Assembly (NCBI GenBank): GCA_964420065.1
Contig: CAYQQK010000003.1
Span: forward strand, 20,478-84,477
DNA: 64,000 bases
From: an uncultured Syntrophomonadaceae bacterium
Lineage (GTDB): Bacteria > Bacillota > Dethiobacteria > DTU022
Direction: 5' to 3'
The position numbers and the translations under genes were made by a program. Positions 17,720-38,232 of this stretch are shown in pieces (position 1 is the first letter of the stretch; each line of letters starts with the position of its first letter). The notes beneath the pieces are model-generated. The model ran no database searches and was not told where the DNA came from. It saw only the letters and a program-made list of their open reading frames with translations.

Positions 17720-18010
17720 CCGCAATCCCGGTATCATGATCGCGTCCCGGCAGTTTTCATGTGGAAAGGTTTGAACGGATGGAGCCGGCCGGTTGGGGGG
17801 CTGTCAGATTCGGTCCCTTTTTCCCATCTACGGGGGCAGACCCGTGCTTGCGGGCCTGTCCCCTTGCTTGTCAAGTGGTCTTTTTGCCTCAATCTGGGGC
17901 AAAAGGAGGGATTAAAGCAGTACCTATGGAATTTACCCATTGAATCGATAATACCCGGCAATTATCATTGTCTATGACTTTCGACAAAATATGACTGGAG
18001 GCGAGAATGA

Positions 18011-19417: not shown

Positions 19418-19509
19418 TGAAACGGTACTTAATAATGCTTGAATTTTGACGAAAGAAACCGTAGAGGAAGGGATGGCGCCTGTAACCGTGGCAATACGAG
19501 GTGACCTGA

Positions 19510-20718
19510 ATGCGAAAACTACCTTTATGGGCCTTGCGACCCGGCATGGAAGTAGCCCGGCGGGTCTACGACGGCAACGGTTTTTTGCTTTTGAACACCG
19601 GGGTTAAACTAAGACGGGCCTATATCGAGGGGCTGAAGGCTCACTGTATTCCCGCAATCTATATTGTTGATGATCTTATTCCAGACGTCCAAATTGTAGA
19701 CGTGATCCTTGATAAAACTCGACGGCGGGCCACCAGCCTGGTCCGCAAAATTATTTGTCAAGCACAACAATCGCCACAAAAAAACAAAAAGGAACAGGTA
19801 TTTCTTCCCCGGAGAGAATTGGAAACCGTTCTGGAGGAAATTATTTCCCAACTGCTCCACAACCGTCACCTGGCGATCAATATGACGGATATTCGCAGTG
19901 CGGATAGCTATACTTTTTCCCACTCGGTGAACGTAGCCGTCCTGGCAATAGTGACTGCAGCCGCCATGGGGTTGTCCCTTTCCGAGCTGCACCGGATCGG
20001 GCTGGGTGCGTTGCTGCACGATCTCGGGAAAACAAAAATTCCGCCTGCCATTCTGAACAAACGGACCCCGCTCCGGAGTGAAGAGATGGAACGGATTAAA
20101 CAACACCCGGCCGATGGTTACCGGATGTTGCAAACACAAAACTTTGGTTCCGCCGCCGCTTTGGTGGTTTATCAGCACCATGAACGCATTGATGGCAGCG
20201 GTTACCCCGACGGTATCACCGGAACAGAGATCGAACTTTTCTCCAAGATCGTCGCTGTAGTCGATGTTTATGACGCCCTGGTTTCCGATCGCCCGTATCG
20301 CCCGGCTTTTCCGCCACACCAGGCGATGGAGATTATCCAGGCCGGTAACGGCAGTTTTGATCGGGGTATTGTTGATAGGTTTCGCTATCATGTTCCGGCT
20401 TTCCCCGTGGGGACGATCGTGGCATTAAGTGACGGTTTTATCGGTGTGGTCGTTCAAAACACGGTTGGTTTTCCAACCAGTCCCCGGGTGCGAATCTTTT
20501 GCCGGCTTGAAACTTTTGAACCGGTAGTTCCTTTTGAAATAAATTTAGCCGACTCCCTTTCGGTGGTTGTAATCAAAGTCCTCGATGACCGGGAACTGCC
20601 TGATCCGTTGCCGATCCACGAATCCTGTCATGCAGCCAAACACAAGGGAAGTGCAAACATTCCGGCGCTGCACGGTGGAATCAGCAAGGCAAACCGTAGG
20701 GAAAAACCAACGGCCTAG
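19510..20718 (+). CDS. HD-GYP domain c-di-GMP phosphodiesterase
   Basis: HD motif (LLHDLGKTKIP) and HHERIDGSGYPDG (GYP) motif. Confidence 0.8.
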   Translation: MRKLPLWALRPGMEVARRVYDGNGFLLLNTGVKLRRAYIEGLKAHCIPAIYIVDDLIPDVQIVDVILDKTRRRATSLVRKIICQAQQSPQKNKKEQVFLPRRELETVLEEIISQLLHNRHLAINMTDIRSADSYTFSHSVNVAVLAIVTAAAMGLSLSELHRIGLGALLHDLGKTKIPPAILNKRTPLRSEEMERIKQHPADGYRMLQTQNFGSAAALVVYQHHERIDGSGYPDGITGTEIELFSKIVAVVDVYDALVSDRPYRPAFPPHQAMEIIQAGNGSFDRGIVDRFRYHVPAFPVGTIVALSDGFIGVVVQNTVGFPTSPRVRIFCRLETFEPVVPFEINLADSLSVVVIKVLDDRELPDPLPIHESCHAAKHKGSANIPALHGGISKANRREKPTA

Positions 20719-20729
20719 GGGGTAGCATC

Positions 20730-22529
20730 GTGAACCGGTCAGGGAACAATGGTCTGGATCAACCGGGTCAGGTTACGGTGATCAAGGGCGAGGCTAAAGT
20801 AATTGATCCTTGCGGGGCAGGCAGCACGGCCTGCATTTGCCCCGGTAAAGGGGTGTCCGTGCTCATTAACGGGGTCAAAATCTTCCGGCGTACACCCGTT
20901 TACTCCACCGATCGGATTCAAATTGAGACTGCGGGCAGCGTGGAACCGGCCAAGGTTTCCGTCCGAATTGCCCCCGACGGGATGTCAGCGGAGGCGGTGT
21001 TGTTCCCTCCGTTAACGGTTACCCATACACTGCCCGACTATCCGCCTTCGCCCGATCTCGAAATCGATGTTGTTGCCCGGGAAGAATACGGCGCCCTGTC
21101 ACTGGAGGAGGCTCTCGGCTTGCTGAGAGAACAGGGGGTTACCTTTGGGCTGGACGAAAAGGCGATTACAGAGCTGCTAAACAAACCCGGTGACTGGGGC
21201 GAGGTCGCCCGGGGTCGCCCGGTGGTGCCCGGCCGCGACGGTTGGGTCGAACCGCAGCATCAAGAATTGTTAAAAAAAGTTGTGTACGGTGAAAATGAAA
21301 ACCGGGTTGATTACCGGGAACGTTTTAAAATTTTACATGTGCAAACAGGCGACCTGCTGGCCCGCATTTGTCCCCCGGTTCCCGGGACGGTCGGGAAGCA
21401 GGTCACCGGTCGCGAAGTAGCAGCCCCACCGGTCTTCCCGGCGGAGGTCCAATGTGGAAAAGGGGCGACACTAAGTCCTGATGGGAGCCAAGTGTTCGCC
21501 AACCGGGTTGGAGCTCCGGTTTATCGGAAAGGCAAGATCCATCTCTTCCGGGTGGACAATCTTTATGTTCACCAGGGCAACATCGATATTCGCAGCGGCA
21601 ACACTGCTTTTCAGGGACATCTCAAGATTCAGGGTGATATCATGGAAGGCATGTCTGTTTCGGCCGAGGGCGAAATCGAGATTGCGGGCCATGCGACCGG
21701 GGCCAATATTTCGGCTGAGGGGCAGGTCATCATCAAAAATAATTGCATCAACTGCCATATTGAAGCCGGTCGAAAACAGATTGTCCGGAATGAATTTGGA
21801 GCTTACCTGAAGGAAACGATTGAGGTGATCGACAATGTTGGCGCCGCCTGCCGGAAGATTATCAGTACCCTGGAAAAACGCGGTCAAAAGGCCGGAGACC
21901 GCCTGCCCTTGATCATGCGCATGGTCGTGCAGAGCAAATTCCCAGCCGCGCCGCAACAGGTAATGGATAATATAGACAAAGCGGAGCGACTGAAACAGTT
22001 TTTGCCGGAAAAGGTTCTTGATTCCCTGCATTATTGCGCCGGTTTTTTTGGGGCATTACAGAATGGGGGCCGTCCGGTCGATTTTACAATGTTGAAGGAG
22101 ATACGGATCGGGCTGGCCCGGGCCGTCGCCTACCTCGATGAAGGCGAAATGGAAGGGATGGGCATCGTGGCCCATTACGTTCAAAACAGCACCCTGCTCT
22201 GCACCGGGGATATTACCATTTCCGGCCCGGGAGTCTACAATTCTACTTTAAAATGCAACGGTGCCGTCCGGGTGGAACGCATTTTTCGCGGTGGTAAAAT
22301 CGGCGCCGGCGGCGACGTCTGGATCGGTAAGGCAGGCACGGCCCGCCTTTCCGTCCAACAAGGGCTGATCCAGGTCCCCCCCGGGAACAAAATCCATCTC
22401 GGCCTGGCCTATGAAAACATGAAAGTGCAGATCGGACCCTCTTTTTATACCCTGAAACAGACCCTGACCGGGATCTGCCTTGCCCTCGATCCCGATAGTC
22501 TGCAGATCCGGATCCAACCCCGCTCTTAA
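20730..22529 (+). CDS. FapA-family (DUF342) flagellar assembly protein A-like, beta-helical
   Basis: 599 aa with C-terminal repetitive beta-helix-like segments (VSAEGEIEIAGHATGANISAEGQVII...). Located immediately upstream of flgM. Confidence 0.55.
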   Translation: MNRSGNNGLDQPGQVTVIKGEAKVIDPCGAGSTACICPGKGVSVLINGVKIFRRTPVYSTDRIQIETAGSVEPAKVSVRIAPDGMSAEAVLFPPLTVTHTLPDYPPSPDLEIDVVAREEYGALSLEEALGLLREQGVTFGLDEKAITELLNKPGDWGEVARGRPVVPGRDGWVEPQHQELLKKVVYGENENRVDYRERFKILHVQTGDLLARICPPVPGTVGKQVTGREVAAPPVFPAEVQCGKGATLSPDGSQVFANRVGAPVYRKGKIHLFRVDNLYVHQGNIDIRSGNTAFQGHLKIQGDIMEGMSVSAEGEIEIAGHATGANISAEGQVIIKNNCINCHIEAGRKQIVRNEFGAYLKETIEVIDNVGAACRKIISTLEKRGQKAGDRLPLIMRMVVQSKFPAAPQQVMDNIDKAERLKQFLPEKVLDSLHYCAGFFGALQNGGRPVDFTMLKEIRIGLARAVAYLDEGEMEGMGIVAHYVQNSTLLCTGDITISGPGVYNSTLKCNGAVRVERIFRGGKIGAGGDVWIGKAGTARLSVQQGLIQVPPGNKIHLGLAYENMKVQIGPSFYTLKQTLTGICLALDPDSLQIRIQPRS

Positions 22530-22575
22530 CTTTATTCTTTTTCTTGCCGATAGATGTGGTGAGGAGGGATTCCTG

Positions 22576-22863
22576 GTGAAAATAAAACCGGACCATGCCC
22601 TGCCGATCGGTCGACTCCCGGCTCGTGAAAACACGCGCGCCGGCCGGCCTTGCGGCGGCACCCCCCCGGGGGCGGGAATAGAACAGAAACAGATATCCGG
22701 CATGGCCGCCTTTTTAAAGGCTGAACTGGAAAAGGCAGAGCATGAAACCGACCCGTCCCGGGCTGCCCAGCTCCGAAATTTGCAAGACGCTATTGAACGC
22801 GGCGTCTACCGGACCGATCCGGCGCAGCTGGCCCGGGCCATGCTGACTCTGTTCAAACGCTAG
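22576..22863 (+). CDS. flgM: Anti-sigma-28 factor FlgM
   Basis: C-terminus LRNLQDAIERGVYRTDPAQLARAML matches the FlgM sigma-binding helix. GTG start after a GAGGAGGG RBS. The ORF-track start (22480) is too long for FlgM. Confidence 0.7.
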   Translation: MKIKPDHALPIGRLPARENTRAGRPCGGTPPGAGIEQKQISGMAAFLKAELEKAEHETDPSRAAQLRNLQDAIERGVYRTDPAQLARAMLTLFKR

Positions 22864-23043
22864 CGGGCCTCCCCGCCCACCCTGCGGGAGATCAGCTTAA
22901 GGGCAGCGCTGGGCCCCGAATCAAGGTTTTCGTTTTTTACGTACGCCCGGGACGGGATCCTCCGGCCGCTGCGCTCGTGACAGCAAGAGCACAGTGGGAA
23001 GGGCGGGGGCTCAACGATCCAAACGCCGGGAAAGGAGAGTTGG

Positions 23044-23550
23044 ATGGTGCACGATCCGATGACCCGTTCTGCTTCGGTTTCAGCCGAGCTCGAGGAGATC
23101 TTGCAGGAAGGGGTTGCCCTTCTGGCCGGGTTGCTTTGTTCCGAGGAGACGCTACAAAAACAGTTGATTCAAGGCGACTACCGCGCCATTTCCGCGACCG
23201 CCGGGGAACGGGACGAGCTGCAACGCCGCCTGGCGGCTTTCGAAACAAGAAGAGAGAAGTTTTTTCCACGGGGGACAAAAATCGGGGACGGCCTGGTCCA
23301 GACGGACACTGTACTGGCCCCGGGAGGGACGGGCGGTCGGGAACGGCTGCAGGCGCTGTTGGGGCAATTTCGCGAGGCGTTGCTGCAAGTTTACGCGCTG
23401 CAAGGAATAAACCGGGAACTGCTTCGGGAAAGGTTACGTTTTACCCGGGAGATGCAGGCCTTGCTTTCAGGCGACAAAGCCTACAACGACCGGGGTGAAC
23501 CGGCATCCGCCGTGCAGGAGGATGTGGCCCGGCTCGATCGCAACTGTTGA
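23044..23550 (+). CDS. FlgN-like flagellar export chaperone
   Basis: 168 aa helical protein at the flgM-flgN-flgK-flgL position, preceded by an AAAGGAG RBS. Confidence 0.45.
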   Translation: MVHDPMTRSASVSAELEEILQEGVALLAGLLCSEETLQKQLIQGDYRAISATAGERDELQRRLAAFETRREKFFPRGTKIGDGLVQTDTVLAPGGTGGRERLQALLGQFREALLQVYALQGINRELLRERLRFTREMQALLSGDKAYNDRGEPASAVQEDVARLDRNC

Positions 23551-23565
23551 GGAGGAAAGAACGGT

Positions 23566-24972
23566 ATGACTATATTTGGAAGTATGGAGATTGGACGGCG
23601 GTCTCTTCGCGCCCAGCTGAAGGGGATGGAAGTTAGCGGTCAAAACGTGGCTAATGCCAACACTCCAGGTTACAGCCGGCAGCGGGTCGACCTGCAGGCC
23701 ATTGCAATCCCCCTGGTGCCGGGAATACCGCTTTCTCCGGGCCGCGGCGTCAAAGTAGCGGCTGTGCAGCGCATCCAGAGCCAGTTTTACCGTTCACAAC
23801 TGAACCAGAACCATGGTCATCTCGGTTACTGGGAAACCTGCCAAGAAACCTTCCAGGGGGTTGAAGTGATTTTGATGGAGCCGGAGGAACACGGTTTAAA
23901 TCGGTTGCTGGGTGATTTTTTTGACCTCTGGCACGAGTTAAGCGCCTCCCCCGAAAGCATGGACGTGCGTACCAGCCTGCAAGCACAGGCGGTTACTTTC
24001 ACCCGAACGGTTCAGGAAGTTTATCTGCGCAGCAATGATCTGAGCTTGAGCCTGCAGGAAGAGATGACTCAGCGAGTCGAGGAAATCAATTTTTTAACCA
24101 AAGAAATTGCGGCCATAAATGAAAAGGTGACCCTGATGTACAACCTTGGGGACACCTCGAATGAACTGCTGGACCAGCTTGACCGGGCTGTGGAACAACT
24201 TTCCGCACTGATTGATGTGCAGACTCTCTACCGGTCCAACGGTGTCGTCCAGGTTTTTACTGGCGGACGGATGCTGGTGCAGGACAACCATAGCTACTCC
24301 CTGTCGATCGCCCGCAGCGACGCGGGCGCGATCGACATCCACAGTGATCGCGGTCAGCCTCTGACCCTGCATTCCGGGCGCCTGGCCGCACTGCAGCAAT
24401 CGGTCAACGCCATCATCCCCGATCTGCAGGGCAAGTTCGATCAAATGGTCTGCCGCCTGGTGGAAGAAGTAAACGCGCTGCATCGCGATGGTTACGGTCT
24501 GGACGGAACCGGGGAGCGCAACTTTTTTGAACCGATCGTTGCGGACAGTCTCATCCCCCCTTCTCTGCAGTTTAAACTCTCCGCCGATCTGTTTGGGGTA
24601 GCGGGTTGCGAGCCGGCCCGGGTTGCCGCTGCTTTCGAACCCGGGGAACCCGGCAACGGCGCGAACGCCCTTGAAGTGGCCCGGTTGCGTGAAGCGCTGA
24701 TCATGGAGGACGGCACCGCCTCGATCATCGAATACTACCGCAGCATTGTTGCTTCTCTGGGGGTGGAAGGCCAGGAATGCGAGCGCATGGTGGGGGCTTA
24801 CACCGCGGCGGAGGCGCAGCTTTTTGAGCGCAACCAGGCCATCGCCGGGGTTGACCTTGACGAAGAAATGTTGAACATGATCCAGTTCCAGCATGCCTGG
24901 CATGCCGCTTCGCTTTTTATCAAGAGCGTGGACGAAATGCTGTCCATTTTACTGTATGAACTGGGCCGGTAG
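23566..24972 (+). CDS. flgK: Flagellar hook-associated protein 1 FlgK
   Basis: N-terminal GQNVANANTPGYSRQ motif plus conserved C-terminal helix. Confidence 0.9.
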   Translation: MTIFGSMEIGRRSLRAQLKGMEVSGQNVANANTPGYSRQRVDLQAIAIPLVPGIPLSPGRGVKVAAVQRIQSQFYRSQLNQNHGHLGYWETCQETFQGVEVILMEPEEHGLNRLLGDFFDLWHELSASPESMDVRTSLQAQAVTFTRTVQEVYLRSNDLSLSLQEEMTQRVEEINFLTKEIAAINEKVTLMYNLGDTSNELLDQLDRAVEQLSALIDVQTLYRSNGVVQVFTGGRMLVQDNHSYSLSIARSDAGAIDIHSDRGQPLTLHSGRLAALQQSVNAIIPDLQGKFDQMVCRLVEEVNALHRDGYGLDGTGERNFFEPIVADSLIPPSLQFKLSADLFGVAGCEPARVAAAFEPGEPGNGANALEVARLREALIMEDGTASIIEYYRSIVASLGVEGQECERMVGAYTAAEAQLFERNQAIAGVDLDEEMLNMIQFQHAWHAASLFIKSVDEMLSILLYELGR

Positions 24973-25008
24973 CGGCCGTAAAACACCCGCGCAGAAGGAG
25001 TGACCGCA

Positions 25009-26634
25009 ATGCGTATCACCCACCGCATGATCGCCGGCGGGATCCAGCACCGGCTCGGGCAAAGTCTGAACCGGCTCGAGCGCTATTCCCAACAACTGGC
25101 CACAGGAAAAGTTTTTCAGCGCCCTTCCCAGAATCCGGTCGGCCTGGTCAAAGTGTTGCGTTACAGCACCTTGATCGAGCGCAATGAGCGGTACCGCCTG
25201 AACATGAATGAGGCTGCACGGTGGCTGGAAAGTACGGAAGACAGTCTTCGGGACGCGCTCGATTCAATCGAGCGGCTGCGTGAACTGTGTATCTACGGCG
25301 CCAACGAAGTTCTCACCGCTGCCGATCGCCATGCCCTGGCCCCGGAAACCCTCGAACTGAGCCGTTTTTTGTTCGACCTGGCCAATAAAGAATACAATGG
25401 CCTTTACCTTTTCGCCGGTCACAATACCCTGGAGACCCCCTTCGTGGAACGCAACCTCTACCGGATCGAGGCGGATGAGGATAGCGGCCTTGATCCGGCA
25501 TCGTTGCAGGCCGAAGGTCTTCAGAACGGTACCTACCGTCTCGCTTTGCGGACGATTGCCGGTGAAGCTCATCCGGCGGAGCTGGAAACGGTGCAGGCTT
25601 GTCTGGGCGACGCTGCCGCCGGTTCGATCTTTGGTGCGGCCGTTTCGACAGCGATCGATCCGGAGATCGATCAAAACGCTTCCATTCTGCTCGAGGTGCT
25701 TTCCGCCGACGGCGACACCGGGGAGGTGCGCTACCGCTTTACCGTGCACCGCTATGACCGGGACGGTGCCTATCACTGCGATCGGGGGGAAGCTTCCCTC
25801 GTTTTCGGCGGGCCAGCGGAGCAGTCCCTTGACCTGGGGGGGGGGATCGTGATCGCGGTCGGCGGGTTGGAGACGGCCAGCCCGGCGCAGGCCGGCCTGC
25901 TTGGTGCCTGCGACCGGGCTGTTTTGAACCTGCTTCCGGAGCGCCTGGCCGCTCAGGAATACCAGGAGGTGCGGCTATCCGGTGAGCACTGTGGGGGTGA
26001 GGCCTCATTCCGGCTCGTCTTCGATGCGGGGACGCTGCAGGAAGGAAGCAACCTGGCCCTGCATTACTTTACCATGAATACCTTCCCCCGTTCTCCTTTC
26101 CTCGGGGAGGCCCACCATGGTTCGGTTTCCCTGGGCTTCGGCGGTTCCTTCGTTGCAAGCGACGCGGCCGCTGTTTTTCATTACGACCGCGAAGGTTTCC
26201 CGGTGTACCGGGGTGATGACGGGCGGCGGGAACTGGATATCAGTCCCCACCAGGTCCTGGCGCTCAACCTGACCGGGCAACAGGCTTTCGGGAAGGAACA
26301 GGAGATTTTCCAGGCGGCCCGCGCCGTTTACCACGCTTTGATCGAAAACGATCGAACTCGTCTCGGCGGGGCGATCCTGGACGATCTGGATCACGCCGTC
26401 GATCTGATTTTACAGCGTTTATCCGAGGTAGGGGCGCGCCAGAAAAGGGTCGAGACGATGCAGGAAACCTTGTTTTGCGAAAGCATGCATCTGCGCGAAA
26501 TGCGTTCCCAGGTCGAGGATATCGATCTTGCCCTGACCATTGCCGAGTTTACGATGCAGGAAAACGCCTACCAGGCCGCCCTTGCCACCGCGGCGCGGAT
26601 CATGCCTCTGAGTTTGGTGGACTATTTGCGCTGA
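25009..26634 (+). CDS. flgL: Flagellar hook-associated protein 3 FlgL
   Basis: MRITHRM...LATGKVFQRPSQNPVG N-terminus. The AAGGAG RBS favours the ATG at 25009. Confidence 0.85.
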   Translation: MRITHRMIAGGIQHRLGQSLNRLERYSQQLATGKVFQRPSQNPVGLVKVLRYSTLIERNERYRLNMNEAARWLESTEDSLRDALDSIERLRELCIYGANEVLTAADRHALAPETLELSRFLFDLANKEYNGLYLFAGHNTLETPFVERNLYRIEADEDSGLDPASLQAEGLQNGTYRLALRTIAGEAHPAELETVQACLGDAAAGSIFGAAVSTAIDPEIDQNASILLEVLSADGDTGEVRYRFTVHRYDRDGAYHCDRGEASLVFGGPAEQSLDLGGGIVIAVGGLETASPAQAGLLGACDRAVLNLLPERLAAQEYQEVRLSGEHCGGEASFRLVFDAGTLQEGSNLALHYFTMNTFPRSPFLGEAHHGSVSLGFGGSFVASDAAAVFHYDREGFPVYRGDDGRRELDISPHQVLALNLTGQQAFGKEQEIFQAARAVYHALIENDRTRLGGAILDDLDHAVDLILQRLSEVGARQKRVETMQETLFCESMHLREMRSQVEDIDLALTIAEFTMQENAYQAALATAARIMPLSLVDYLR

Positions 26635-26666
26635 TTCCGAACCTGCACAAAAGGAGGAATAAGGTT

Positions 26667-27104
26667 ATGTCTGCCCAGTCAGACAATGGGCCGGTCGGCC
26701 CGCAAACACCGCCACAATTTCACTTTCCCCGTGGTTTGCCCGGTCTGGACGGGTTTCACCGGTTCCTGGTGAATCCGGTTCCCGGCAACCGTCTTTTCGC
26801 CATGCTCGTTGCCGCCGGCGATCCGGCGGTGGGGCTGATCCTGGTCGATCCCCTGCCCTTCTTTCCGGGCTACCGGGTCGATCTTTTCCCGGTCGACCGG
26901 CGGGACCTGCTGCTGAAGGAGGAGCGGGACCTGGTTATATTTACCACCGTAGCCGTGGACGATCAGGAACTATATACCAACCTCGGCGCCCCGATTCTGA
27001 TCAACGTGATCAGCAAGCGCGGCAAGCAGATCATCCTTCCCGATCGGACGAACCAGTTGCGCGTCCCGCTCGACCCCGGGCCCGAACATTGCGCCGTCTC
27101 TTGA
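26667..27104 (+). CDS. fliW: Flagellar assembly factor FliW (CsrA antagonist)
   Basis: FHFPRGLPGLDGFHRF...TNLGAPILINVISKRG matches FliW. GGAGGAATAAGG RBS. The ORF-track start at 26475 overlaps flgL. Confidence 0.85.
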   Translation: MSAQSDNGPVGPQTPPQFHFPRGLPGLDGFHRFLVNPVPGNRLFAMLVAAGDPAVGLILVDPLPFFPGYRVDLFPVDRRDLLLKEERDLVIFTTVAVDDQELYTNLGAPILINVISKRGKQIILPDRTNQLRVPLDPGPEHCAVS

Positions 27105-27382
27105 AGAGGATTCGCCGCCGGCTTTATTGGGGGGGAAGATCAACGCTTGCCGCATGAATAATGGGAGCAACCCATCGGTGGAGGACAAGGGAACGGACCT
27201 CAAGGGATGGCCCGTTTTTTTGTTTCTGCGAACTTTCTCCTCCGAAAGAGGCAGTTGCCGTTTCGAAAAGCTTGGGGCATCGGGAGAGGGAAAACAGATT
27301 TCGGGGAGGTTTAATGCGGGGGAATAGCGAAATTTGTTCCGGGGGTGAGGTATTGCCTTTCCCGGAAAGGGGTGAGCTGCGA

Positions 27383-27628
27383 ATGCTGGTGCTGACCCGC
27401 AAGAGCGGTGAAAAGATCATGATCGGTGAAGAAATCGAGATCACGGTGGTCGCAGTTGACGGGGAGGCGGTACGCTTGGGGGTTAATGCTCCTCGGGATG
27501 TGCCGGTCTTCCGCAGTGAGGTCTTCGAAGAGATCCGCCTTGAAAACCTGCGTGCGCTCAAGTCTGCGGCGTGCCTGCAAGCGAAACTGGGACGGGGAAG
27601 CGAGGGGGTGGAAAAACCGGAACTTTAA
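27383..27628 (+). CDS. csrA: Carbon storage regulator CsrA
   Basis: MLVLTRKSGEKIMIGEEIEITVVAVDGEAVRLGVNAPRDVPVFRSEV is a canonical CsrA. Positioned fliW-csrA-hag as in Bacillus. Confidence 0.9.
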   Translation: MLVLTRKSGEKIMIGEEIEITVVAVDGEAVRLGVNAPRDVPVFRSEVFEEIRLENLRALKSAACLQAKLGRGSEGVEKPEL

Positions 27629-27685
27629 AACCACCGGTCCGAAACATGGATTATTATTTCAGCCGGCCTGGCCATCAGTGAAAAA

Positions 27686-29665
27686 ATGCGCGGCCAGATC
27701 CGGGGTCTGAACCAGGCCACGCGCAACGCCCAGGACGGCATTTCGCTGATCCAGACCGCGGAAGGGGCCTTGAACGAGACCCACTCGATCCTGCAGCGCA
27801 TGCGGGAACTGGCCGTGCAGGCGGCCAACGACACCCTCACCGCCTCGGATCGGCTCGAGATCCAGAAAGAGATCGACCAGCTCACCGGCGAAATAAACCG
27901 CATCGGCACCACCACCGAATTCAATACGAAGAAACTGCTCGACGGCACCACGGCGGCGCTGACCAGCACCAGTGACCTCAAGACCAAGGTCTACATGCGC
28001 GACGGCCTGCGCGTCATCGACCAGTTCGGCCAGAAAGCGGTCGGCGGGGGCAACTACAAGCTGGAGATCGAAGCCGACCCCGGAATCGGCCAGGTTCAGA
28101 AGACCGATATCATGAAGATCAAGCACGAGCATACGATCAAGGGACCGAATTGGGTCAACGTCGTGCACGTGGGAGAAGAAGGAGAAGAATTTAAAGGACT
28201 GCAAGGACTTTTTTTTGAGAACGAGTACGTTGAGCGAGCGATAATCGGATTCAACTGTTTAGATCCTGATAACTTCCAAGAAGAAGGTGCCTTCGAGGTA
28301 AGGGCTGAATACAGTGAATACTCACCTATCGATGGCAGCCCTGGTAGAACGCTGTCGGTCATTATTATTTTGGATGAGGACGAAAGTACCGAAGCGAATA
28401 TCGCAGAGATAATAGAGCAGATTTTTGATGATGCAATCGAGATTAAAGAGATGCCTGAAGGAACCAGCTTTACGATTAGCGATATTCTCGACGTGCGAGA
28501 GATCGGGCTCGGTGGGAAAATCAAACCGGCCCATATCAAGTTCGGAAATGAAGTCATTGCTGCCGTCCTGGACGAGCCTTTCACCGATACAGCCGCCACC
28601 GCCAACATTGGCGATGTCGCCGATCTGCAAACCCAGCTTTACGACATCGATCGTTTCTGGGATGCCAACGGCAATTTCCTGGTTGAAGATCCGCAGACGG
28701 TTACCCTGGTCCAGGGGGACGGCAACAAGACCTCTTTCACTATCTTCGGTTCCGACACCATCGGTGATGTGGTGAATAAGCTCAATGATGCGATCCATCA
28801 CGGGCTCGGACAGAACGCGATCAACGACAATGCCGGCGCGTATGTCAACTATGTCCCCGCCGAAGGTGAAGCCGCCAAAGGGTTTTTCTCCGTGGCGGGC
28901 ACCATGGTGATCCAGTCGGCCATAACCGGCAAGGACGGCGAGATCGCCTTTATCGGTGATGAGGGTGTGATCAATGCGCTCAGCCTGACCACCATCCAGA
29001 ATGCAAAAAATAATAATTTTACCGCAAATGTCCTTAATGCTCATAACACCGCTGAGGTTGTGGCCAAAGATGTAAACATTACCGGCAGCTTCCTTGTCGG
29101 CGTGGTCCATCCCAACGTGGACGTGAAATTCGACCCGATGACCGGTGTGAAAGTCAGTTTGGTTGAGGAAGGAAGCGATAACGCGGGCGCCTTTGCTTGG
29201 GCCCAGCAAACAACGGTTGAAAACGGAGAGATGTTTCCGTTGGTGGAAAATGTATACATCCACCTATCCGACAATACGATGGTCTTCCAGATCGGGGCCA
29301 ACCCGCTTCAAGACGTGGCTGCCTCCATCGGCGACATGCGCGCCGAGGCCCTGGGAGTGGATAATATTCTTGTCACGAACCGGGGGGTGGCCAACCGGGC
29401 CATCACCCAGGTGGACGGGGCCATCGGCCGGGTTTCCTCGGAGCGGGCCAAGCTGGGGGCGTTGCAGAACCGCCTTGAACATACCATCGCCAACCTGGGC
29501 GTGGCCGCGGAGAACCTGACCGCCGCCGAATCCCGCGTGCGGGACCTTGACTTTGCTTTGGAGATGGTCGAGTTTACCCGGAACCAGATCTTGATGCAGG
29601 CCGGGACCGCCATGCTGGCTCAGGCCAACCTGAAGCCGCAGTCCGTACTGATGCTGCTCGGATAG
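27686..29665 (+). CDS. Flagellin paralog lacking the conserved N-terminal ~46 residues (possible 5'-truncated pseudogene)
   Basis: Nearly identical to the downstream flagellin from codon ~47 ([18 protein letters not shown]...), divergent in the central domain, and nearly identical again in the C-terminal ~350 aa. Homology to the intact copy begins at ~27663. There is no promoter or UTR, and the frame runs on from the csrA stop codon. Confidence 0.6.
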
Positions 29666-29739
29666 TCAGATCGGGTTAACCGGGCCGGGGATGTAAAGGG
29701 ATGGGAAAAGTGGAAACTAGAAACCGGCTCGAAAGAGGG

Positions 29740-29766
29740 TTAACATTTTGGGCGGGTTGACGATAA
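29740..29766 (+). promoter_or_regulatory. Candidate sigma-28 (FliA) promoter of the intact flagellin (TTAA-N15-GACGATAA)
   Basis: Resembles TAAA-N15-GCCGATAA with 2 mismatches, about 130 nt upstream of the ATG. Confidence 0.3.
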
Positions 29767-29858
29767 AAAAGTTAGAGCATCCGTTTCCTACCGAAACGGC
29801 CGTGGAAAGGAGGCCGGGATGACCGGACGGTGCGGCAAGAGACGGGGTTCAAAAAACG

Positions 29859-29892
29859 GCACGGAAGCCGGAATAATCAATCACGGAGGATT
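29859..29892 (+). promoter_or_regulatory. Two candidate CsrA-binding GGA sites in the flagellin 5' UTR, the second overlapping the SD
   Basis: cACGGAAGc and tcACGGAGGAtt are spaced about 20 nt apart. The second covers the GGAGGA SD of the ATG at 29898, analogous to hag BS1/BS2 in Bacillus subtilis. Confidence 0.35.
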
Positions 29893-29897
29893 GAACC

Positions 29898-31952
29898 ATG
29901 AGAATCAATACCAACCTGGCGGCGTTAAACGCCTACCGCAACTTGGTCAACACCGACAACCGTTTGAACAAGTCCCTTGAACGTCTCTCTTCGGGTCTGC
30001 GTATCAACCGCGCTGCGGACGATGCCGCCGGCCTGGCCATCAGCGAGAAGATGCGTGGCCAGATTCGGGGCCTGAACCAGGCCACGCGCAACGCCCAGGA
30101 CGGCATTTCGCTGATCCAGACCGCGGAAGGGGCCTTGAACGAGACCCACTCGATCCTGCAGCGCATGCGGGAACTGGCCGTGCAGGCGGCCAACGACACC
30201 CTCACCGCCTCGGATCGGCTCGAGATCCAGAAAGAGATCGACCAGCTCACCGGCGAAATAAACCGCATCGGCACCACCACCGAATTCAATACGAAGAAAC
30301 TGCTCGACGGCACTACTGCGGCCCTGACCAGCACCAGTGACCTCAAGACCAAGGTCTACATGCGCGACGGCCTGCGTGTCATCGACCAGTTCGGCCAAAA
30401 AGCGGTCGGCGGGGGCAACTACAAGCTGGAGATCCTGGCCGACCCGGGAATAGGCCAGGTCCAGAAGACCGATATCATGAAGGTCAAGCACGCCCATGAT
30501 GTCTGGACCTCGGAGTGGACCGGTGTCATCACCGGAGAAGAAGAATCTTTCCTGCAGGGGATTCTTTTGGAGAACGAGTACGGGATCGAAAATATCGCGA
30601 TCGAATTCGAAGCCGCGTCTGGTGAAAACCAAGAGACAGCAGCAGCAGCCGCGTACGATGATGAAAGTAAAACGGTCACGATCACAGTTACCTTGGGGAC
30701 GGACGGTGATGAGGCAACCTCCGCTACAGTTGCAGAGGTTTATGAGGCGATCACTGGCGTTACAGCTATTGATGATGCCGATTTTGGTATCAATGACATC
30801 CTTGGGCTAGAAGTAAACGAAGCACAAAGTACCGAGGTTTTAACCGCAGCACCCGATGATGTCACCCTGGAGGGCGGTTACCGGCATGTCGGCATCGGCG
30901 ATGTGGCCCACCTCGAAACCAAGCTCAACGATATCGATCGTTTCTGGGATGCCAACGGCAATTTCCTGGTTGAAGATCCGCAGACGATTACCCTGGTGCA
31001 AGGCGACGGTAGTAAGACCTCCTTTACTATCTTTGGTTCCGACACCATCGGTGATGTGGTGAATAAGCTCAATGATGCCATCCATCACGGGCTCGGACAG
31101 AACGCGATCAACGACAATGCCGGCGCGTATGTCAACTATGTCCCCGCCGAAAGTGAAACCACCAAAGGGTTTTTCTCCGTGGCGGGCACCATGGTGATCC
31201 AATCGGCCGTAACCGGCAAGGACGGAGAGATCGCCTTTATCGGCGATGAAGGGGTGATCAACGCGCTCAGCCTGACCACCATCCAATATGCGAAGGATAA
31301 CAACTTTACTGTTAAGGTAAGCAACGCTCACAACATCGAAGAGGTTGTGGCTGAAAATGTAAACATCACCGGCAGCTTCCTTGTCGGCGTGGTCCATCCC
31401 AATGTGGACGTGAAATTTGACCCGATGACCGGTGTGAAAGTCAGTTTGGTTGAGGAAGGAAGCGATAATGCGGGCGCCTTTGCTTGGGCCCAGCAAACAA
31501 CGGTTGAAAACGGAGAGACGCTTCCGTTGGTGGAAAATGTATACATCCACCTATCCGACAATACGATGGTCTTCCAGATCGGGGCCAACCCGTTGCAGGA
31601 TGTGGGCGCCTCCATCGGCGACATGCGCGCCGAGGCCCTCGGGGTGGATAACATCCTCGTTACCAATCGGGGGCTGGCCAACCGGGCCATCACCCAGGTG
31701 GACGGCGCCATCGGCCGGGTTTCCTCGGAGCGGGCCAAGCTGGGGGCGCTGCAGAACCGACTCGAGCATACCATCGCCAACCTGGGCGTGGCCGCGGAGA
31801 ACCTGACCGCTGCCGAATCCCGCGTGCGCGATCTCGACTTTGCTTTGGAGATGGTCGAGTTTACCCGGAACCAGATCTTGATGCAGGCCGGGACCGCCAT
31901 GCTGGCCCAGGCCAACCTCAAGCCGCAGGCCGTATTGATGCTGCTCGGGTAA
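29898..31952 (+). CDS. fliC: Flagellin (large, 684 aa, with hypervariable central domain)
   Basis: [16 protein letters not shown]...[17 protein letters not shown]-terminus and conserved C-terminal [16 protein letters not shown]. Confidence 0.95.
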
Positions 31953-31963
31953 ACGGGCCAGGT

Positions 31964-31995
31964 GAAACGGGGCCGGCCGGGACCGGCCCCGTTTC
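31964..31995 (+). terminator. Stem-loop terminator after the flagellin
   Basis: GAAACGGGGCCGG-ccggga-CCGGCCCCGTTTC forms a perfect 13-bp stem. The U-tract is weak. Confidence 0.45.
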
Positions 31996-32028
31996 CGGTC
32001 TAGGAAAACATCCCGGTAAAGCTCTATT

Positions 32029-32433
32029 TTGGACCGGAGGAAGGTGGAGGGTGTGAAGATCAACGAGATCGACCTGCTGGCGGCGGATCAGCTCCGGGAA
32101 AAAACTTCGCGCCGCGCGGTCAAACCGGCCGAGGGGGCTCAGTTTGATCAAAAGGTAAAGGAGAAGGAACAATCTGCAGCAAAAGTGCCTCCTGCCGACG
32201 GTAGTAAAAAGGCCGAAAGCCTGGACCGGGCCCTGCAGAAGCTGAACGATACCGCCCGGGCCTTTCAACTGCGCCTGCAATTTCAGAAACACCAGGCTTC
32301 GAATCGTTGGATGGTGCGGGTGGTCGACCCGCTCAGCGATCGGGTTCTGCGCGAGATCCCCCCGGAGCAAGTCCTGAACATTGTCGCCCAGATTCAGGAC
32401 CTGATCGGGATTCTCCTGGATGAAAAGTGCTGA
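32029..32433 (+). CDS. flaG: Flagellar protein FlaG
   Basis: C-terminal NRWMVRVVDPLSDRVLREIPPEQVLNIVAQIQDLIGILLDEK matches the FlaG family. The true start may be the GTG at ~32056, after a GGAGGAAGG RBS. Confidence 0.7.
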   Translation: MDRRKVEGVKINEIDLLAADQLREKTSRRAVKPAEGAQFDQKVKEKEQSAAKVPPADGSKKAESLDRALQKLNDTARAFQLRLQFQKHQASNRWMVRVVDPLSDRVLREIPPEQVLNIVAQIQDLIGILLDEKC

Positions 32434-32477
32434 AACGCTTCCCCGCAAGTAGCGGGGGTGGAAGGAGGAATTGAGGG

Positions 32478-34352
32478 ATGAGCCCCAGTGTCAGAGGGCT
32501 GGCTTCGGGTGTGGATATCAACAAGATTCTTGACGAGCTGATGGCGATTGAACGAAGGCCGATCGCCCGCAATGAAGCCCAGATCTCCCGGGCCGAGACC
32601 ATCGCCGGATTGTGGCGCGATCTGACCGTGCGCTTCGACGCCCTGCAGCGCAGCCTTCAGCCTCTGTTGAATCAGGCTACCTTTACCACTGCGGTTGCTT
32701 CCAGTTCGGACCCGGAACGGGTGCGGGTGGCCGTGACCGGACCGGCCGCTACCGGCAGCTACCGTTTGGAGATAGAGCGGCTTGCGACACGCCACGGCGT
32801 CGTTTCGGGCCCGGCGGAAGGGGGGGTGGGGTTGATCGACGATCCCGCTGCAGCCCTGGGCCTGCACGGCACCTTCACTCTGGCCCTGAGCCGTCCGCCC
32901 GAAGCGGTCGGGGAACTGTTTGTAGCGGGCGGGTGGCTGCAGGGCAGCCTTGCGACCGGGTACACCGCGGTGCTGGATGGTAACGCCGCCAGCGTGTATG
33001 CCCCGGCGATCGCGTCGCTGCAATTCGCCGAGGGATTTGAGGCCGGCCGGGAGATCCGGCTCTACCTGGAGGGGTTTACCGGAAGCGACGGTAAAGAGGC
33101 CTGGCAAGAACTGGCCGATTTTTACGGGACGGCAGGACTTCCGGATCCGGGCAATCCCCATGCGGTTATTGGTTGGGATGAGACAACGGCTACCTGGCAG
33201 CTCCTGGACCGGGAGGGTGCCCCTTTTTCCATAACGGGCGATCATCCCCGGGGAAACCTGGCCTTGCGGGCCGAGGTTGTCGGTGAAGGTGGCAACATTC
33301 TTGCCAGCCATCATTTTTCTTTCAAAATTGCCCAATCCTTTACCGCGGCCGGATGGATCACGGTCAAGGCCGAGGATAGCCTGCACCAGATCGCCGGTCG
33401 CATCAACGCCGTCGCCGACCTGACCGGGGTTACCGCCGGCGTGATCAAGCGGGTTGAAGGGGACTGGCGCTTGGTGCTGGAAAGCCGGATCGAGGGCGCG
33501 GCGGGGCAGATCCAGGGGCAACATCTTCTTCCCGCGGGGACGGGGATGGAAACGTATGGTGCGGATGCTATCCTTGAATGCCTCGGCCTGACCGTGCCGG
33601 GGGCGGTGGGCACATTTGTCCAGACTTTCCGGGAAGCCGCCGATGCCTGTTTCACCTTGAACGGGCTTCCGCTGGAACGCGCTTCCAACAGTGTGGCCGA
33701 CCTGATCGCGGGCCTGACTCTGACCCTGTGCGGCACCGGGGAGGTGCGACTGGAGGTGCAGCCTGACCGGGCCGTTCCGCGGGAAGCGATCGAACGCTTT
33801 GTCAATACCTACAACGAAGCCAATTCTCTGGTGCGGGCCATGCTCGAGGAGAAAACCGGGCCGTTGCAGGGGGATCCGACCCTGCTTCGTTTGGAAAGAC
33901 GCCTGCGCTCATTGGTCCACGGGCCGGTGACCACCGGCGGCGACATGCTTTTCCGCAGCCTGGCTGCACTGGGGATCACCTCCGAAAAGGAGAATACCGA
34001 AGGGTATCTTTATCTTGATGCGGCCCGGCTGGAGCGGGCCCTGGAGGAAAGTCCGGAGGCGGTGTTCAGCTTTTTTGCTTCTCCGGCCGGAACCGGCGGT
34101 CTGGCGCGGCAACTGGATCTGTTCACCACCCTGGTTACCGGGCGGGACGGGGTCATCCCCGGGCGGAGGGCTTATCTGGACCGTCAAATTGATCGTATGC
34201 GCAAGCAGATTGAAGCCTGGGAGGAACGGCTGGTCCGACGAGAAGCGAACCTGGTGCGTCGTTTCACCTTCATGGAACAGTACATCTCCCGGGTTCAGGA
34301 ACAGACCGGACTGCTGGCCACATTTGAAATGCAATGGCAAAAAGATCAGTAA
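32478..34352 (+). CDS. fliD: Flagellar filament cap protein FliD
   Basis: GLASGVDINKILDELMAIERRPI N-terminus; 624 aa. Confidence 0.9.
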   Translation: MSPSVRGLASGVDINKILDELMAIERRPIARNEAQISRAETIAGLWRDLTVRFDALQRSLQPLLNQATFTTAVASSSDPERVRVAVTGPAATGSYRLEIERLATRHGVVSGPAEGGVGLIDDPAAALGLHGTFTLALSRPPEAVGELFVAGGWLQGSLATGYTAVLDGNAASVYAPAIASLQFAEGFEAGREIRLYLEGFTGSDGKEAWQELADFYGTAGLPDPGNPHAVIGWDETTATWQLLDREGAPFSITGDHPRGNLALRAEVVGEGGNILASHHFSFKIAQSFTAAGWITVKAEDSLHQIAGRINAVADLTGVTAGVIKRVEGDWRLVLESRIEGAAGQIQGQHLLPAGTGMETYGADAILECLGLTVPGAVGTFVQTFREAADACFTLNGLPLERASNSVADLIAGLTLTLCGTGEVRLEVQPDRAVPREAIERFVNTYNEANSLVRAMLEEKTGPLQGDPTLLRLERRLRSLVHGPVTTGGDMLFRSLAALGITSEKENTEGYLYLDAARLERALEESPEAVFSFFASPAGTGGLARQLDLFTTLVTGRDGVIPGRRAYLDRQIDRMRKQIEAWEERLVRREANLVRRFTFMEQYISRVQEQTGLLATFEMQWQKDQ

Positions 34353-34386
34353 GCTCTTTTTTGTCTTCAAAAAGGTGGTTTTGAAG

Positions 34387-34782
34387 ATGGGCCTCTCGAA
34401 CAACCCGTACTTGAACTATCGCCGGAACCAGGTTGAAACGGCCGCCCCGGAAGAGCTGCTGTTGATGCTCTACCGTGGCGCGTTCTCCTTTATCCACCGT
34501 GCCCGGGAGGCGCTGGCCGCAGGGAACCTGCAGGAAACGAACCGCTTTCTCGGCCGGGCCCAGGATATACTGTGCGAACTGCTCGGTTCCCTGAACCCGG
34601 ATCTGCCGGAACTTTCCGGGAACCTGTTCCGCCTCTACGAGTACATCCATTATCTTCTCGTGCAGGCCAATCTATCCAAGGAAGCTGGTCCGTTGGATGA
34701 GGCCGAAAAACTGCTGGGGGTGCTGCAGGAAGCCTGGCAGGATGCCCTGGCCGCACCGTTGGCCGGAAATGGGCATCGTTAA
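34387..34782 (+). CDS. fliS: Flagellin-specific chaperone FliS
   Basis: MGLSNNPYLNYRRNQVETAAPEELLLMLYRGA... matches the FliS family. The ORF-track start at 34015 overlaps fliD. Confidence 0.85.
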   Translation: MGLSNNPYLNYRRNQVETAAPEELLLMLYRGAFSFIHRAREALAAGNLQETNRFLGRAQDILCELLGSLNPDLPELSGNLFRLYEYIHYLLVQANLSKEAGPLDEAEKLLGVLQEAWQDALAAPLAGNGHR

Positions 34783-35295: not shown

Positions 35296-35376
35296 AGACC
35301 GAAAAGAGGGCAAACCCGTCGCAAGGCGGGGACGCAAAGCCACGGATCCGTTTCGGATTGCCAGGCTGCCGGTCGG
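35296..35376 (+). ncRNA. Cyclic-di-GMP-I (GEMM) riboswitch aptamer in the flgB leader
   Basis: P1 GACCG/CGGTC encloses AGGGCAAACC-CGTC-GCAA-GGCGGGGACGCAAAGCC ... GATTGCCAGGCTGCCGG, which matches the GEMM-I core. Confidence 0.75.
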
Positions 35377-35478: not shown

Positions 35479-35880
35479 ATGCTTTCCCGGAATAACAGGG
35501 TCATGGAGTGCTTGAACCGGAGTCTCGATGCGGCGGTGTTGCGCCAGCAGGTCACCGCTCATAACCTGGCCAACTTGAATACGCCGCGTTTCAAACGTTC
35601 CACCGTTATTTTTGAAAAATCCCTGCGGCAGGCTCTTGCGCAAACAAAAACCGGGCCGGTGACGACCCATCCGCTGCACCGGCCCGCCGGGAATGCTCTC
35701 CCTGAACCCCGGGTGCAAGTGGAACAACAGACGGCAGTACGGGTCGATGGGAACAATGTTGATCTGGAACGGGAAATGCTGGATCTGGTGATGAACCAGT
35801 TGCGTTATCAGGCCCTGGTCCGGCAGATCAACGGCCGTTGTGATGACTGGCGCTACGTCATTGCCGAGGGGAGGCGCTAA
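35479..35880 (+). CDS. flgB: Flagellar basal-body rod protein FlgB
   Basis: HNLANLNTPRFKR motif. The start lies after the terminator (RBS AAAGGGGGG); the ORF-track start at 35440 lies inside the terminator. Confidence 0.85.
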   Translation: MLSRNNRVMECLNRSLDAAVLRQQVTAHNLANLNTPRFKRSTVIFEKSLRQALAQTKTGPVTTHPLHRPAGNALPEPRVQVEQQTAVRVDGNNVDLEREMLDLVMNQLRYQALVRQINGRCDDWRYVIAEGRR

Positions 35881-35881
35881 A

Positions 35882-36337
35882 ATGGCCTTGTTTGAACTGT
35901 TTCATATCTCCGGTTCCGCACTCACGGCTGAAAAGCTGCGTCTGGAGGTTGTTTCCGGCAACCTGGCCAATATGACCACGACCCGTACCGCCGCAGGCGG
36001 TCCCTACCGGCGGCGTACAGTCGTTTTTGCCGAAAACCTGGCCACCTCAAGAAACGGTCCCGCCGTCTCCGCGCCGGTAAGCGGGACGACAGCCGGTCCC
36101 TTGGCCGGCCGGGGGGTTCGGGTCCAGGCTATCCTGGCGGATCACCGCTCTCCCCGGCTGGTCTACGATCCGGACCATCCTGATGCCGGGGAGGACGGTT
36201 ACGTGCCCTATCCGAACATAGACCTGGCCAAAGAAATTACCGATATGATGACCGCTTTGCGGTCCTACGAAGTCAGCTCTACCGCTATCGAAGCCGCCAA
36301 AACCATCTATCTTAAAACACTTGAAATCGGTCGCTAG
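35882..36337 (+). CDS. flgC: Flagellar basal-body rod protein FlgC
   Basis: MALFELFHISGSALTAEKLRLEVVSGNLANMTTT... matches FlgC. Confidence 0.9.
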   Translation: MALFELFHISGSALTAEKLRLEVVSGNLANMTTTRTAAGGPYRRRTVVFAENLATSRNGPAVSAPVSGTTAGPLAGRGVRVQAILADHRSPRLVYDPDHPDAGEDGYVPYPNIDLAKEITDMMTALRSYEVSSTAIEAAKTIYLKTLEIGR

Positions 36338-36696: not shown

Positions 36697-38232
36697 ATGT
36701 CGGAAGGCAGCAATGCAACCCCGGTAACGGAAAAAAAACAAAGTCCTGCCGGACAATTCTGGAGTGGCTTGAGCCGGCCTACCCGTCTGATCATGGGTGC
36801 GGCGGCGTTCGTGATTGTTTGTGCTTTGTTCTTTTTTATCTTTGGTCAGAAGAAAACCCCGCTGGAGGTGCTGTTCAGCGGGTTGGAACCGGGCCAGGCG
36901 GAGGAGGTGCTGGCGGTCCTGGAAGAACAGCGGATCCCTTTTGATACCGCCGACGAAGGTGCCACGATCCTGGTCCCACGGGAACAGCGGGACCGGTTGC
37001 GGATCAAACTTTCCCCCGACCTTTATGCCCAGGGCAAGGGGTTTGCTCTTTTTGAAGCCGGCGGTCTGATCGCAAGCGACTTTGAACGGCGGGTACAGTG
37101 GCAGATCGCCCTGGAGGAGGAACTGCGTCGGACCATTACCAGTCTCGATTCGATCAAGCAGGCCCGGGTGCACCTGGTCATTCCCGAGGACGGGGTGTTT
37201 ATGCGCGACAGGGGGGTGCCGACCGCCGCCATTTTCGTGCGATTGGAACCGTTGGCTTCATTGACCGACCAGCAAGTGCGCGGCATCCTGACCATGGTTG
37301 CCGGGAGCGTGGAGGGGCTGTTGCCGGAAAACGTGACGATCATCGATGCCCGGGGCAACGTCCTTTTTGATGCCTTCCAGCTAGGGGAAAAAAATTCGCC
37401 CCAGCATGCTTCCAGCCAGATCGAGCTGCAGCGCGGTTTTGAACGGGAACTGGAATATCGTTTGCGAACCCTGCTCGAGCGGATCTACGGTCCAGGTAAA
37501 GCCGTGGCCATGGTCAGCGCCGAACTCGATTTTGAAACCCGTGAACGGACTACCGTTACTTACAGCGATCCGGTTAATCGTTCCGAACAGCACCTTGAAG
37601 AATGGTACGAAGGGACGGCCGGGCTGCCGCTGGAGGTGGGCGAACCGAACATTCCAGGCTATGCCGCCGAAACCGGCGCCGGCGATTACGAGTACGAACG
37701 GATTGAAGACATTATCAACTACGAAGTTGGGGAAACCCGGGAATATATCGCCTCGGCTCCCGGGCAAGTAAAACGCCTTTCGGCGGCAGTCATTCTTGAC
37801 CGGCCCGCTTCAGAAGAAACGGCCGAACGAATCGCCGCCCTGGTTGCCTCGGCCATTGGCCTGGATGATATTCGAGGTGATATCGTTTCGGTCCAGTGCC
37901 TGCCGTTTGATACCTCGTGGCAGGAGGGGTGGGAAGAAGAACCGGCCGTACCTGCTCCGGCGGGACGTTTCACCTTGCGCCCCCTGCATCTTGTTGCCGC
38001 CGCCGTTGCCCTGGGATTGTTACTGTTCCTGGGAGTGGTTCTGGTTCGGCGCAGCCGGGCCGCCCACCTGCAGGATATGGAGCTTTTCCGGGAAGGCATG
38101 ATTGAAGAAGCGGCGGCGGAAGAAAAGCCGGCGCCTCCCGAACAGAAAAAGCATGAACAGGTCCGGCAGATGGCTGAAGATGAACCGGAAGACATGGCCC
38201 AGGTGTTACGAACCTGGTTGGCTCAAGAGTAA
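36697..38232 (+). CDS. fliF: Flagellar MS-ring protein FliF
   Basis: 511 aa with an N-terminal TM, a LEPGQAEEVLAVLEEQRIPF domain and a C-terminal TM. Confidence 0.9.
   Translation: MSEGSNATPVTEKKQSPAGQFWSGLSRPTRLIMGAAAFVIVCALFFFIFGQKKTPLEVLFSGLEPGQAEEVLAVLEEQRIPFDTADEGATILVPREQRDRLRIKLSPDLYAQGKGFALFEAGGLIASDFERRVQWQIALEEELRRTITSLDSIKQARVHLVIPEDGVFMRDRGVPTAAIFVRLEPLASLTDQQVRGILTMVAGSVEGLLPENVTIIDARGNVLFDAFQLGEKNSPQHASSQIELQRGFERELEYRLRTLLERIYGPGKAVAMVSAELDFETRERTTVTYSDPVNRSEQHLEEWYEGTAGLPLEVGEPNIPGYAAETGAGDYEYERIEDIINYEVGETREYIASAPGQVKRLSAAVILDRPASEETAERIAALVASAIGLDDIRGDIVSVQCLPFDTSWQEGWEEEPAVPAPAGRFTLRPLHLVAAAVALGLLLFLGVVLVRRSRAAHLQDMELFREGMIEEAAAEEKPAPPEQKKHEQVRQMAEDEPEDMAQVLRTWLAQE

Follow-up and report, generated by a model that had tools for sequence, protein, structure and literature searches.

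The locus analyzed here raises the question of what a flagellin gene without its 5' end represents when it stands directly after csrA, with a second, full-length flagellin gene further on: an artefact of assembly, an expressed regulatory protein, a store of sequence for recombination, or a remnant. The window, i.e., the whole stretch of 64,000 nucleotides that was analyzed, contains a canonical Firmicute late-flagellar cluster with the gene order flgM-flgN-flgK-flgL-fliW-csrA-flagellin-flaG-fliD-fliS. Here, flgN (23044-23550), flgK (23566-24972), and flgL (25000-26634) are followed, on the + strand, by fliW (26667-27104; Pfam PF02623 FliW, E 4.7e-24; the same gene call at 11659-12096 of an identical Logan contig, L007); csrA (27383-27628, 81 aa; Pfam PF02599 CsrA at residues 1-52, E 7.9e-25), with a strong Shine-Dalgarno match; a spacer of 33 nt (27629-27661), seen also in the Logan contig; and the two flagellin copies, the 5'-truncated copy 1 (27662-29665, stop TAG) and copy 2 (29898-31952, 684 aa), separated by 232 nt of intergenic DNA (29666-29897). 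Downstream, on the same strand, lie flaG (32029-32433; Pfam PF03646, E 2.8e-22), the filament cap gene fliD (32478-34352; Pfam FliD_N and FliD_C), and the flagellin chaperone gene fliS (about 34414-34782, the start being approximate; Pfam PF02561, E 2.2e-32, at residues 134-244 of the open reading frame 34015-34782).

BLASTN comparison of the two copies shows that homology begins at 27662, equivalent to 30027 in copy 2, i.e., at codon 44 (A44-G45-L46). The original prediction had placed this start at about 27663, in agreement with our result; it had also matched the 659-aa open reading frame to the downstream flagellin, which is confirmed, but from residue ~47, which is corrected to residue 44. 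Copy 1 thus corresponds to residues 44-684 of copy 2 (BLASTN, tblastn, and Pfam), and codons 1-43 are absent from it in the protein alignment. Its first ATG is at 27686, and the frame from there is open to the stop at 29665. An N-terminal block of 466 nt (27662-28127 vs. 30027-30492) is 96.1% identical and a C-terminal block of 1056 nt (28606-29661 vs. 30893-31948) is 91.7% identical between the copies, both without gaps (BLASTN). The central segments have diverged: the hypervariable surface-domain segment of copy 1 (28128-28605, +), which has a lower G+C content, gives no BLASTN match to copy 2 and is seen to be homologous to 30493-30892 by protein alignment. In the alignable parts, the copies differ at 106 positions. 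The homology stops exactly at the stop codon, the 3' flanks being unrelated, hence, the pair is not a simple fresh tandem duplication. No other flagellin fragments were found in the 64-kb window by tblastn or BLASTN.

In terms of domains, the Flagellin_N profile of 139 positions is covered by copy 2 from 1 to 137 and by copy 1 from 42 to 137 only, whereas Flagellin_C is complete in both (copy 1 covering positions 2-86 of 86, E 1.7e-27). Measured against a functional flagellin (Pfam PF00669 and PF00700), copy 1 therefore has a complete C-terminal helical region (D1-C/D0-C), but lacks a complete N-terminal helical region including D0-N, as well as a promoter and a ribosome-binding site of its own; the absence of the N-terminal D0 segment had been correctly recognized before. 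The csrA frame runs on past the TAA stop (27626-27628) into copy 1 with no further stop, and this earlier observation was reproduced. The shared frame is a 1-in-3 coincidence, and 11 non-homologous stop-free codons are expected by chance with a frequency of about 59%. A CsrA-flagellin read-through fusion was considered and rejected, given the intervening TAA, the coincidental frame, and the lack of support for it.

The original prediction had listed an assembly collapse across the repeat among its options. The exact proteins encoded by the two copies, P0001 and P0002, are known from a single metagenome-derived NCBI contig of 148,563 nt; exact sequence look-ups returned no record for either copy or for the 544-aa FlgL open reading frame, and an exact metagenome scan with the 3' tail of csrA gave no match. 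The Logan contig SRR8925753_158526, which is on record for two samples, was found via an identical 541-aa FlgL call (P0121); it comes from an independent k=31 assembly by a different assembler and is 100% identical to positions 15009-27736 of the window. It extends across csrA and the spacer of 33 nt to 75 nt into copy 1, and it ends where 31-mers become common to copy 2, the last discriminating base being 27706. The junction of csrA, the 33 nt, and codon 44 joins non-homologous sequence, so that no shared k-mer could have created it; with this independent junction and the 106 differences between the copies, we reject assembly collapse for the csrA-flagellin junction. The second junction (29666-29739), which connects the stop of copy 1 with the promoter of copy 2, and the pairing across a tract of 242 nt identical in both copies come from the original assembly. 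It might still be supposed that the genome in reality contains a first copy of full length, or a single flagellin gene, and that strain variants were joined or the repeat was mis-resolved. This would fit the single metagenome-derived contig as the source of the locus, the derivation of the second junction from the original assembly, and the length of the exact repeats common to both copies, which, at up to 242 nt, exceed typical k-mers. Such an artefact is nevertheless very unlikely, as the csrA-flagellin junction recurs at 100% identity from a different assembler in two samples, the copies are distinct at 106 alignable positions, and the assembled path is the sole one that uses all unique segments.

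The expression signals of the two copies are different. The distance of 33 nt from the csrA stop to the start of homology leaves no room for a promoter or leader before copy 1, and such signals are found before copy 2 only, in line with the earlier claim that copy 1 has no promoter or 5' untranslated region of its own. In the spacer, neither a promoter, nor a terminator, nor homology to the DNA upstream of copy 2 was detected, and its fold is no better than that of shuffled sequence (z -0.35); the spacer and the 3' flank of copy 1 also show no homology to intergenic DNA of copy 2 or of the relative L009. Shine-Dalgarno pairing at ATG 27686 amounts to -3.9 kcal/mol, compared to -10 to -17 kcal/mol for flgK, flgL, csrA, copy 2, and fliD. 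No terminator was found between csrA and copy 1, which makes passive co-transcription of copy 1 likely.

Copy 2 is preceded by a sigma-D (sigma-28)-like promoter, TTAAC-N16-CGATAA (29740-29766, +), which is the sole match of the motif scan in the 64-kb window, a single match having no statistical weight alone. In the predicted fold of its 5' leader (29772-29897, +), GGA is exposed in the loops of three hairpins, and the third and last hairpin includes the GGAGG ribosome-binding site; such GGA hairpins are typical of CsrA-type sites, and we regard them as putative binding sites. The promoter-like site and the leader blocks CGGCACGGA.GCCGGA and TCAATCACGGAGGATTGAA are conserved before the intact flagellin of L009, and a G+C-rich hairpin follows the copy 2 stop. 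Generally, fliW and csrA adjoining a flagellin with leader GGA sites over the Shine-Dalgarno sequence characterize the Hag-FliW-CsrA module; this arrangement is true for copy 2 and kept in L009, while copy 1, having no leader, falls outside it. Copy 2 is presumably the expressed filament gene. An invertible or site-specific flagellar phase switch was rejected, as no inverted repeats of the hin-like or C. difficile flagellar type flank the promoter segment, the repeats in 26600-32600 being imperfect and at most 25 nt long.

To place the truncation among relatives, orthologous loci were compared. FlgL homologues assign the lineage to Syntrophomonadaceae/Dethiobacteria-type MAGs. A search of genome contigs with FlgL alone yielded no relatives, and a profile scan of genome contigs yielded only relatives at most 50% identical, in most of which neither csrA nor flagellin comes after fliW. 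The nearest relatives by FlgL (79% and 70% identical) are on contigs that end before the flagellin genes. In L009 (FlgL 60% identical), flgK-flgL-fliW-csrA precedes 380 nt containing promoter and leader, after which an intact flagellin begins with MRINTN; in L023 (Dethiobacteria), fliW-csrA is followed by a full flagellin. The comparison suggested earlier as a check for an intact first copy thus finds one in both loci. In more distant soda-lake MAGs, flagellins are located elsewhere and, where there are two copies, both are full length. Judged from these sequences, the ancestral gene was intact and had a promoter and leader of its own.

The survey comprised 107 loci, 80 of which came from metagenomes searched with copy 2 as the query, and 104 flagellin N-terminal matches. 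Only copy 1, with its Logan duplicate, starts after residue 8 among these 104 matches, hence, the truncation is a one-off in the available data, and the truncated locus is carried by one genome (n = 1). Six C-terminal matches have no N-terminus, all at contig ends. Among the closest 120 proteins listed, P0001 is the only one truly truncated; P0041 and P0116 were rejected as further truncated flagellins, being start-codon miscalls with full N-termini upstream.

Copy 1 shows no decay so far. By the Nei-Gojobori method, comparison of the two copies yields a dN/dS ratio of 0.057 for the N-terminal block, where dS is 0.15, and of 0.11 for the C-terminal block, where dS is 0.30; among 211 columns conserved at 90% or more in an alignment with 118 homologues, one deviates in copy 1 and one in copy 2; and copy 1 has as yet no frameshifts, stops, or loss of conserved residues. 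With at most one change at about 480 nonsynonymous sites, neutral divergence since the loss of constraint is at most about 1%, far below the divergence between the copies. The absence of visible decay means either that the truncation is recent or that the sequence is maintained, and sequence alone does not separate the two. An intact frame of 659 codons with strong signatures of purifying selection is also expected of a maintained cassette and, to this extent, counts against a remnant.

The N-terminal blocks differ at 18 positions, and between these lies a run of 242 identical nucleotides (27707-27948, + strand, equal to 30072-30313 in copy 2), for which random placement of the differences gives p ~1e-5. 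This candidate tract suggests recent gene conversion between the copies, in either direction, although merging of bubbles by the assembler could also yield it. If genuine, the tract shows that the copies interact, which likewise does not favor a mere remnant.

Two functional readings of copy 1 have to be weighed against loss of function. The original prediction had proposed that a 5'-truncated copy might sequester FliW and FliS. Copy 1 would then be an expressed cytoplasmic decoy, co-transcribed with fliW-csrA and translated from ATG 27686, whose product, neither exportable nor polymerizing, titrates FliS and/or FliW and shifts the Hag-FliW-CsrA partner switch toward repression of copy 2. Read-through transcription is plausible, as no terminator separates csrA from copy 1; an 11-codon upstream frame (27646-27681) ends 4 nt before the ATG, so that some reinitiation may occur; D0-C, the FliS-binding region, and D1-C are intact; and Flagellin-FliW-CsrA can also act in regulation beyond motility (PMC11898703). 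The FliW surface, however, is only partly there. In B. subtilis, three flagellin segments are protected by FliW (residues 11-34, 50-72, and 240-260), and the first 72 residues are enough for it to bind (PMC6070490), so the earlier assignment of FliW binding to the C-terminal region only does not hold. Copy 1 keeps the equivalents of 50-72 and 240-260, but by alignment has none of residues 1-43, so that the truncated product would be without part of the FliW site, including the whole of the protected segment 11-34. Moreover, the system runs near 1:1:1 stoichiometry (PMC6529632), and a binder made constitutively and never exported would keep flagellin synthesis shut off; the Shine-Dalgarno match is far weaker than those of the neighboring genes, copy 1 has no promoter of its own, and the arrangement is absent in all relatives surveyed. 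No positive evidence for sequestration was obtained, and we regard it as extremely improbable.

A role as a donor of sequence, also raised originally, is better founded, and yet we consider it unlikely. Copy 1 would here be a maintained, pilS-like silent cassette in an environmental anaerobic Firmicute, comparable to Neisseria pilS/pilE, kept promoterless and 5'-truncated and never expressed; gene conversion through the conserved D1/D0 coding ends would move its hypervariable domain into copy 2 and so vary the filament against flagellotropic phages, grazers, or predators. As in pilS, copy 1 is a partial donor without promoter and 5' coding sequence, flanked by blocks matching the expression locus (466 nt at 96% and 1056 nt at 92%); donors of this kind, silent and partial, define the known systems (PMC3899283). 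The differences between the copies cluster in the surface-domain segment, the frame is intact with conserved positions undegenerated, and the 242-nt tract suggests that exchange has taken place. For Campylobacter flaA/flaB, intragenomic recombination of flagellin genes has been suggested (PMC5126078), and in Proteus mirabilis hybrid FlaAB flagella are known (PMC10290045, citing Manos et al. 2004). Against this, pilS-like systems have multiple cassettes or conservation among relatives, whereas the 64 kb hold one copy and no further fragments, the first copy of L009 is intact, no other truncated flagellin is seen among the 104 N-terminal matches, and no relative has the same arrangement. Neither a hybrid nor a second carrier of the copy 1 domain appears among the best 120 matches listed from a database of 5.8 billion proteins; the identical tract may be a bubble-merging artefact; and, with the direct repeats ordered as they are, a reciprocal exchange between them would cost copy 2 its promoter and 5' end and abolish motility.

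Copy 1 is most likely a truncated silent paralogue and, more specifically, it is probably what a recent deletion left behind, a silent and non-functional remnant, a reading to which we give reasonable though by no means full confidence. The decaying duplicate of the original prediction is thereby the best-supported of its options, with the reservation that no decay is visible yet in dN/dS or in the conserved columns. The locus would formerly have held two complete flagellin paralogues, and a single deletion, from just after csrA to codon 44 of the csrA-proximal one, would have removed the sigma-D promoter, the CsrA-regulated leader with its ribosome-binding site, and the N-terminal D0 segment, i.e., the export signal, the polymerization helix, and part of the FliW site. 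The product of copy 1 would be unable to form a filament subunit; transcription probably includes the copy only as the 3' end of the fliW-csrA message, and its translation is probably poor or absent. Motility would be carried by copy 2, which retains the promoter, the leader with putative CsrA sites, and the full coding sequence. A recent date of the event would explain why the remnant still resembles a healthy gene. Our inferences here are the mechanism (a deletion), the absence of expression, and the recent date. Since the conserved ends are 92-96% identical, copy 1 can still recombine with copy 2, as a by-product.

Known systems offer partial parallels. The gene order fliW-csrA-flagellin is that of the Bacillus subtilis/Firmicute fliW-csrA-hag module, and copy 2 resembles the flagellin of that module in its sigma-D-type promoter and GGA-hairpin leader, with one hairpin over the Shine-Dalgarno sequence (PMC6529632). 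The locus differs from the module in that the flagellin right after csrA is a promoterless, leaderless stump from codon 44, the regulated paralogue being 2.3 kb further on. In Proteus mirabilis, the silent flaB is complete and lies downstream, and a deletion fusing 5' flaA to 3' flaB gives an expressed hybrid. Here, in contrast, it is the upstream copy that is silent, and it has lost its 5' end, so that a functional hybrid could arise only by non-reciprocal conversion; no hybrids were observed. Common to both loci are tandem paralogues, one expressed and one silent, whose conserved ends permit the formation of hybrid genes (PMC10290045, citing Manos et al. 2004). Our locus, with one copy in one genome and no evidence of directed transfer, also differs from Neisseria pilS. 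There, the cassettes are many, conserved across strains, and served by a dedicated initiation mechanism. The likeness lies in partial copies that have no promoter and 5' coding region and share sequence with the expression locus (PMC3899283). An ordinary deletion pseudogene is resembled in that a single event would have taken both the promoter and the 5' end and that no relative has the same truncation, the difference being that copy 1 has so far no frameshifts, stops, or loss of conserved residues. No direct precedent was found in the literature on truncated or silent flagellin pseudogenes.

If copy 1 were maintained as a donor cassette, silent-cassette variation of the pilin type would have a flagellar parallel outside pathogens, a rare case bearing on phage-host and surface-variation biology. 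If, as we consider probable, it is only the remnant of a recent deletion, its significance lies mostly in annotation: gene-calling programs list a 659-aa flagellin here (P0001), although the product would be neither exportable nor polymerizable, and it would be wrong to credit the locus with two functional flagellins. The remnant would then offer a clean snapshot of a flagellin paralogue just after its inactivation.

The DNA between fliW (26667–27104) and csrA (27383–27628) spans 278 nt in the window (27105–27382), versus approximately 50 nt in L009 (3656–3704), a locus whose FlgL is 60% identical, and approximately 40 nt in the Dethiobacteria locus L023. L008 is the closest relative, with 79% identity in FlgL; past its fliW, a stretch of over 300 nt (3098–3400) contains no csrA and shows no homology to the fliW–csrA spacer of the window. 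The region directly 3′ of fliW seems to be rearrangement-prone in this lineage.

Downstream of csrA, an 11-codon ORF, ATGGATTATTATTTCAGCCGGCCTGGCCATCAGTGA, is found on the forward strand (27646–27681); it starts 17 nt past the csrA stop codon, ends 4 nt before the ATG at 27686 of the 5′-truncated flagellin (copy 1), and has no Shine–Dalgarno sequence of its own. Weak reinitiation at the copy 1 ATG via this ORF could in principle occur.

Copy 1 and the full-length paralogue (copy 2) share a conserved extra domain of approximately 230 aa (28606–29300 and 30893–31590, respectively), which defines a flagellin subfamily of 660–1100 aa present among the closest matches, the carriers including soda-lake Syntrophomonadaceae MAGs. 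The hypervariable segment of copy 1 contains a cysteine (GFNCLD), probably an unusual residue for flagellins. At 541 aa, FlgL (25000–26634) is unusually long and carries a large insert in its central part; homologues of the same architecture reach 884 aa, and the named matches come from Syntrophomonadaceae MAGs in nearly all cases, plus one Dethiobacteria MAG.

Two database flagellins, P0116 and P0041, begin at an internal Met (MERLSSG...; loci L027, 2391–2469, and L026, 25–103, respectively) and were considered as further truncated flagellins. Both were rejected, as their late starts result solely from the gene caller missing the true start, ATG at L027:2391 and TTG at L026:25; hence, a late start annotated for a flagellin in a protein database cannot be relied on as evidence of truncation. 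A metagenome contig (L078, Ga0116190_1002234; 2727–8794) carries five tandem flagellin genes of 275–487 aa, all with complete N-termini.

Two c-di-GMP riboswitches are seen in the window, both on the forward strand. One, of the GGC variant (RF03167, 74 bits; 5604–5694), lies directly 5′ of the ORF at 5674–7155, overlapping its start; the product is a transglutaminase-like protein (Pfam PF01841). The other, a c-di-GMP-I aptamer (RF01051, 61 bits versus a gathering score of 35; 35299–35373), sits 5′ of the flagellar basal-body operon, which includes a rod protein gene (35840–36337), fliF (36697–38232), fliG and fliI. Control of early flagellar genes by c-di-GMP is known in Clostridioides difficile; the position of the aptamer upstream of the basal-body operon suggests that early flagellar genes are under c-di-GMP control here as well.
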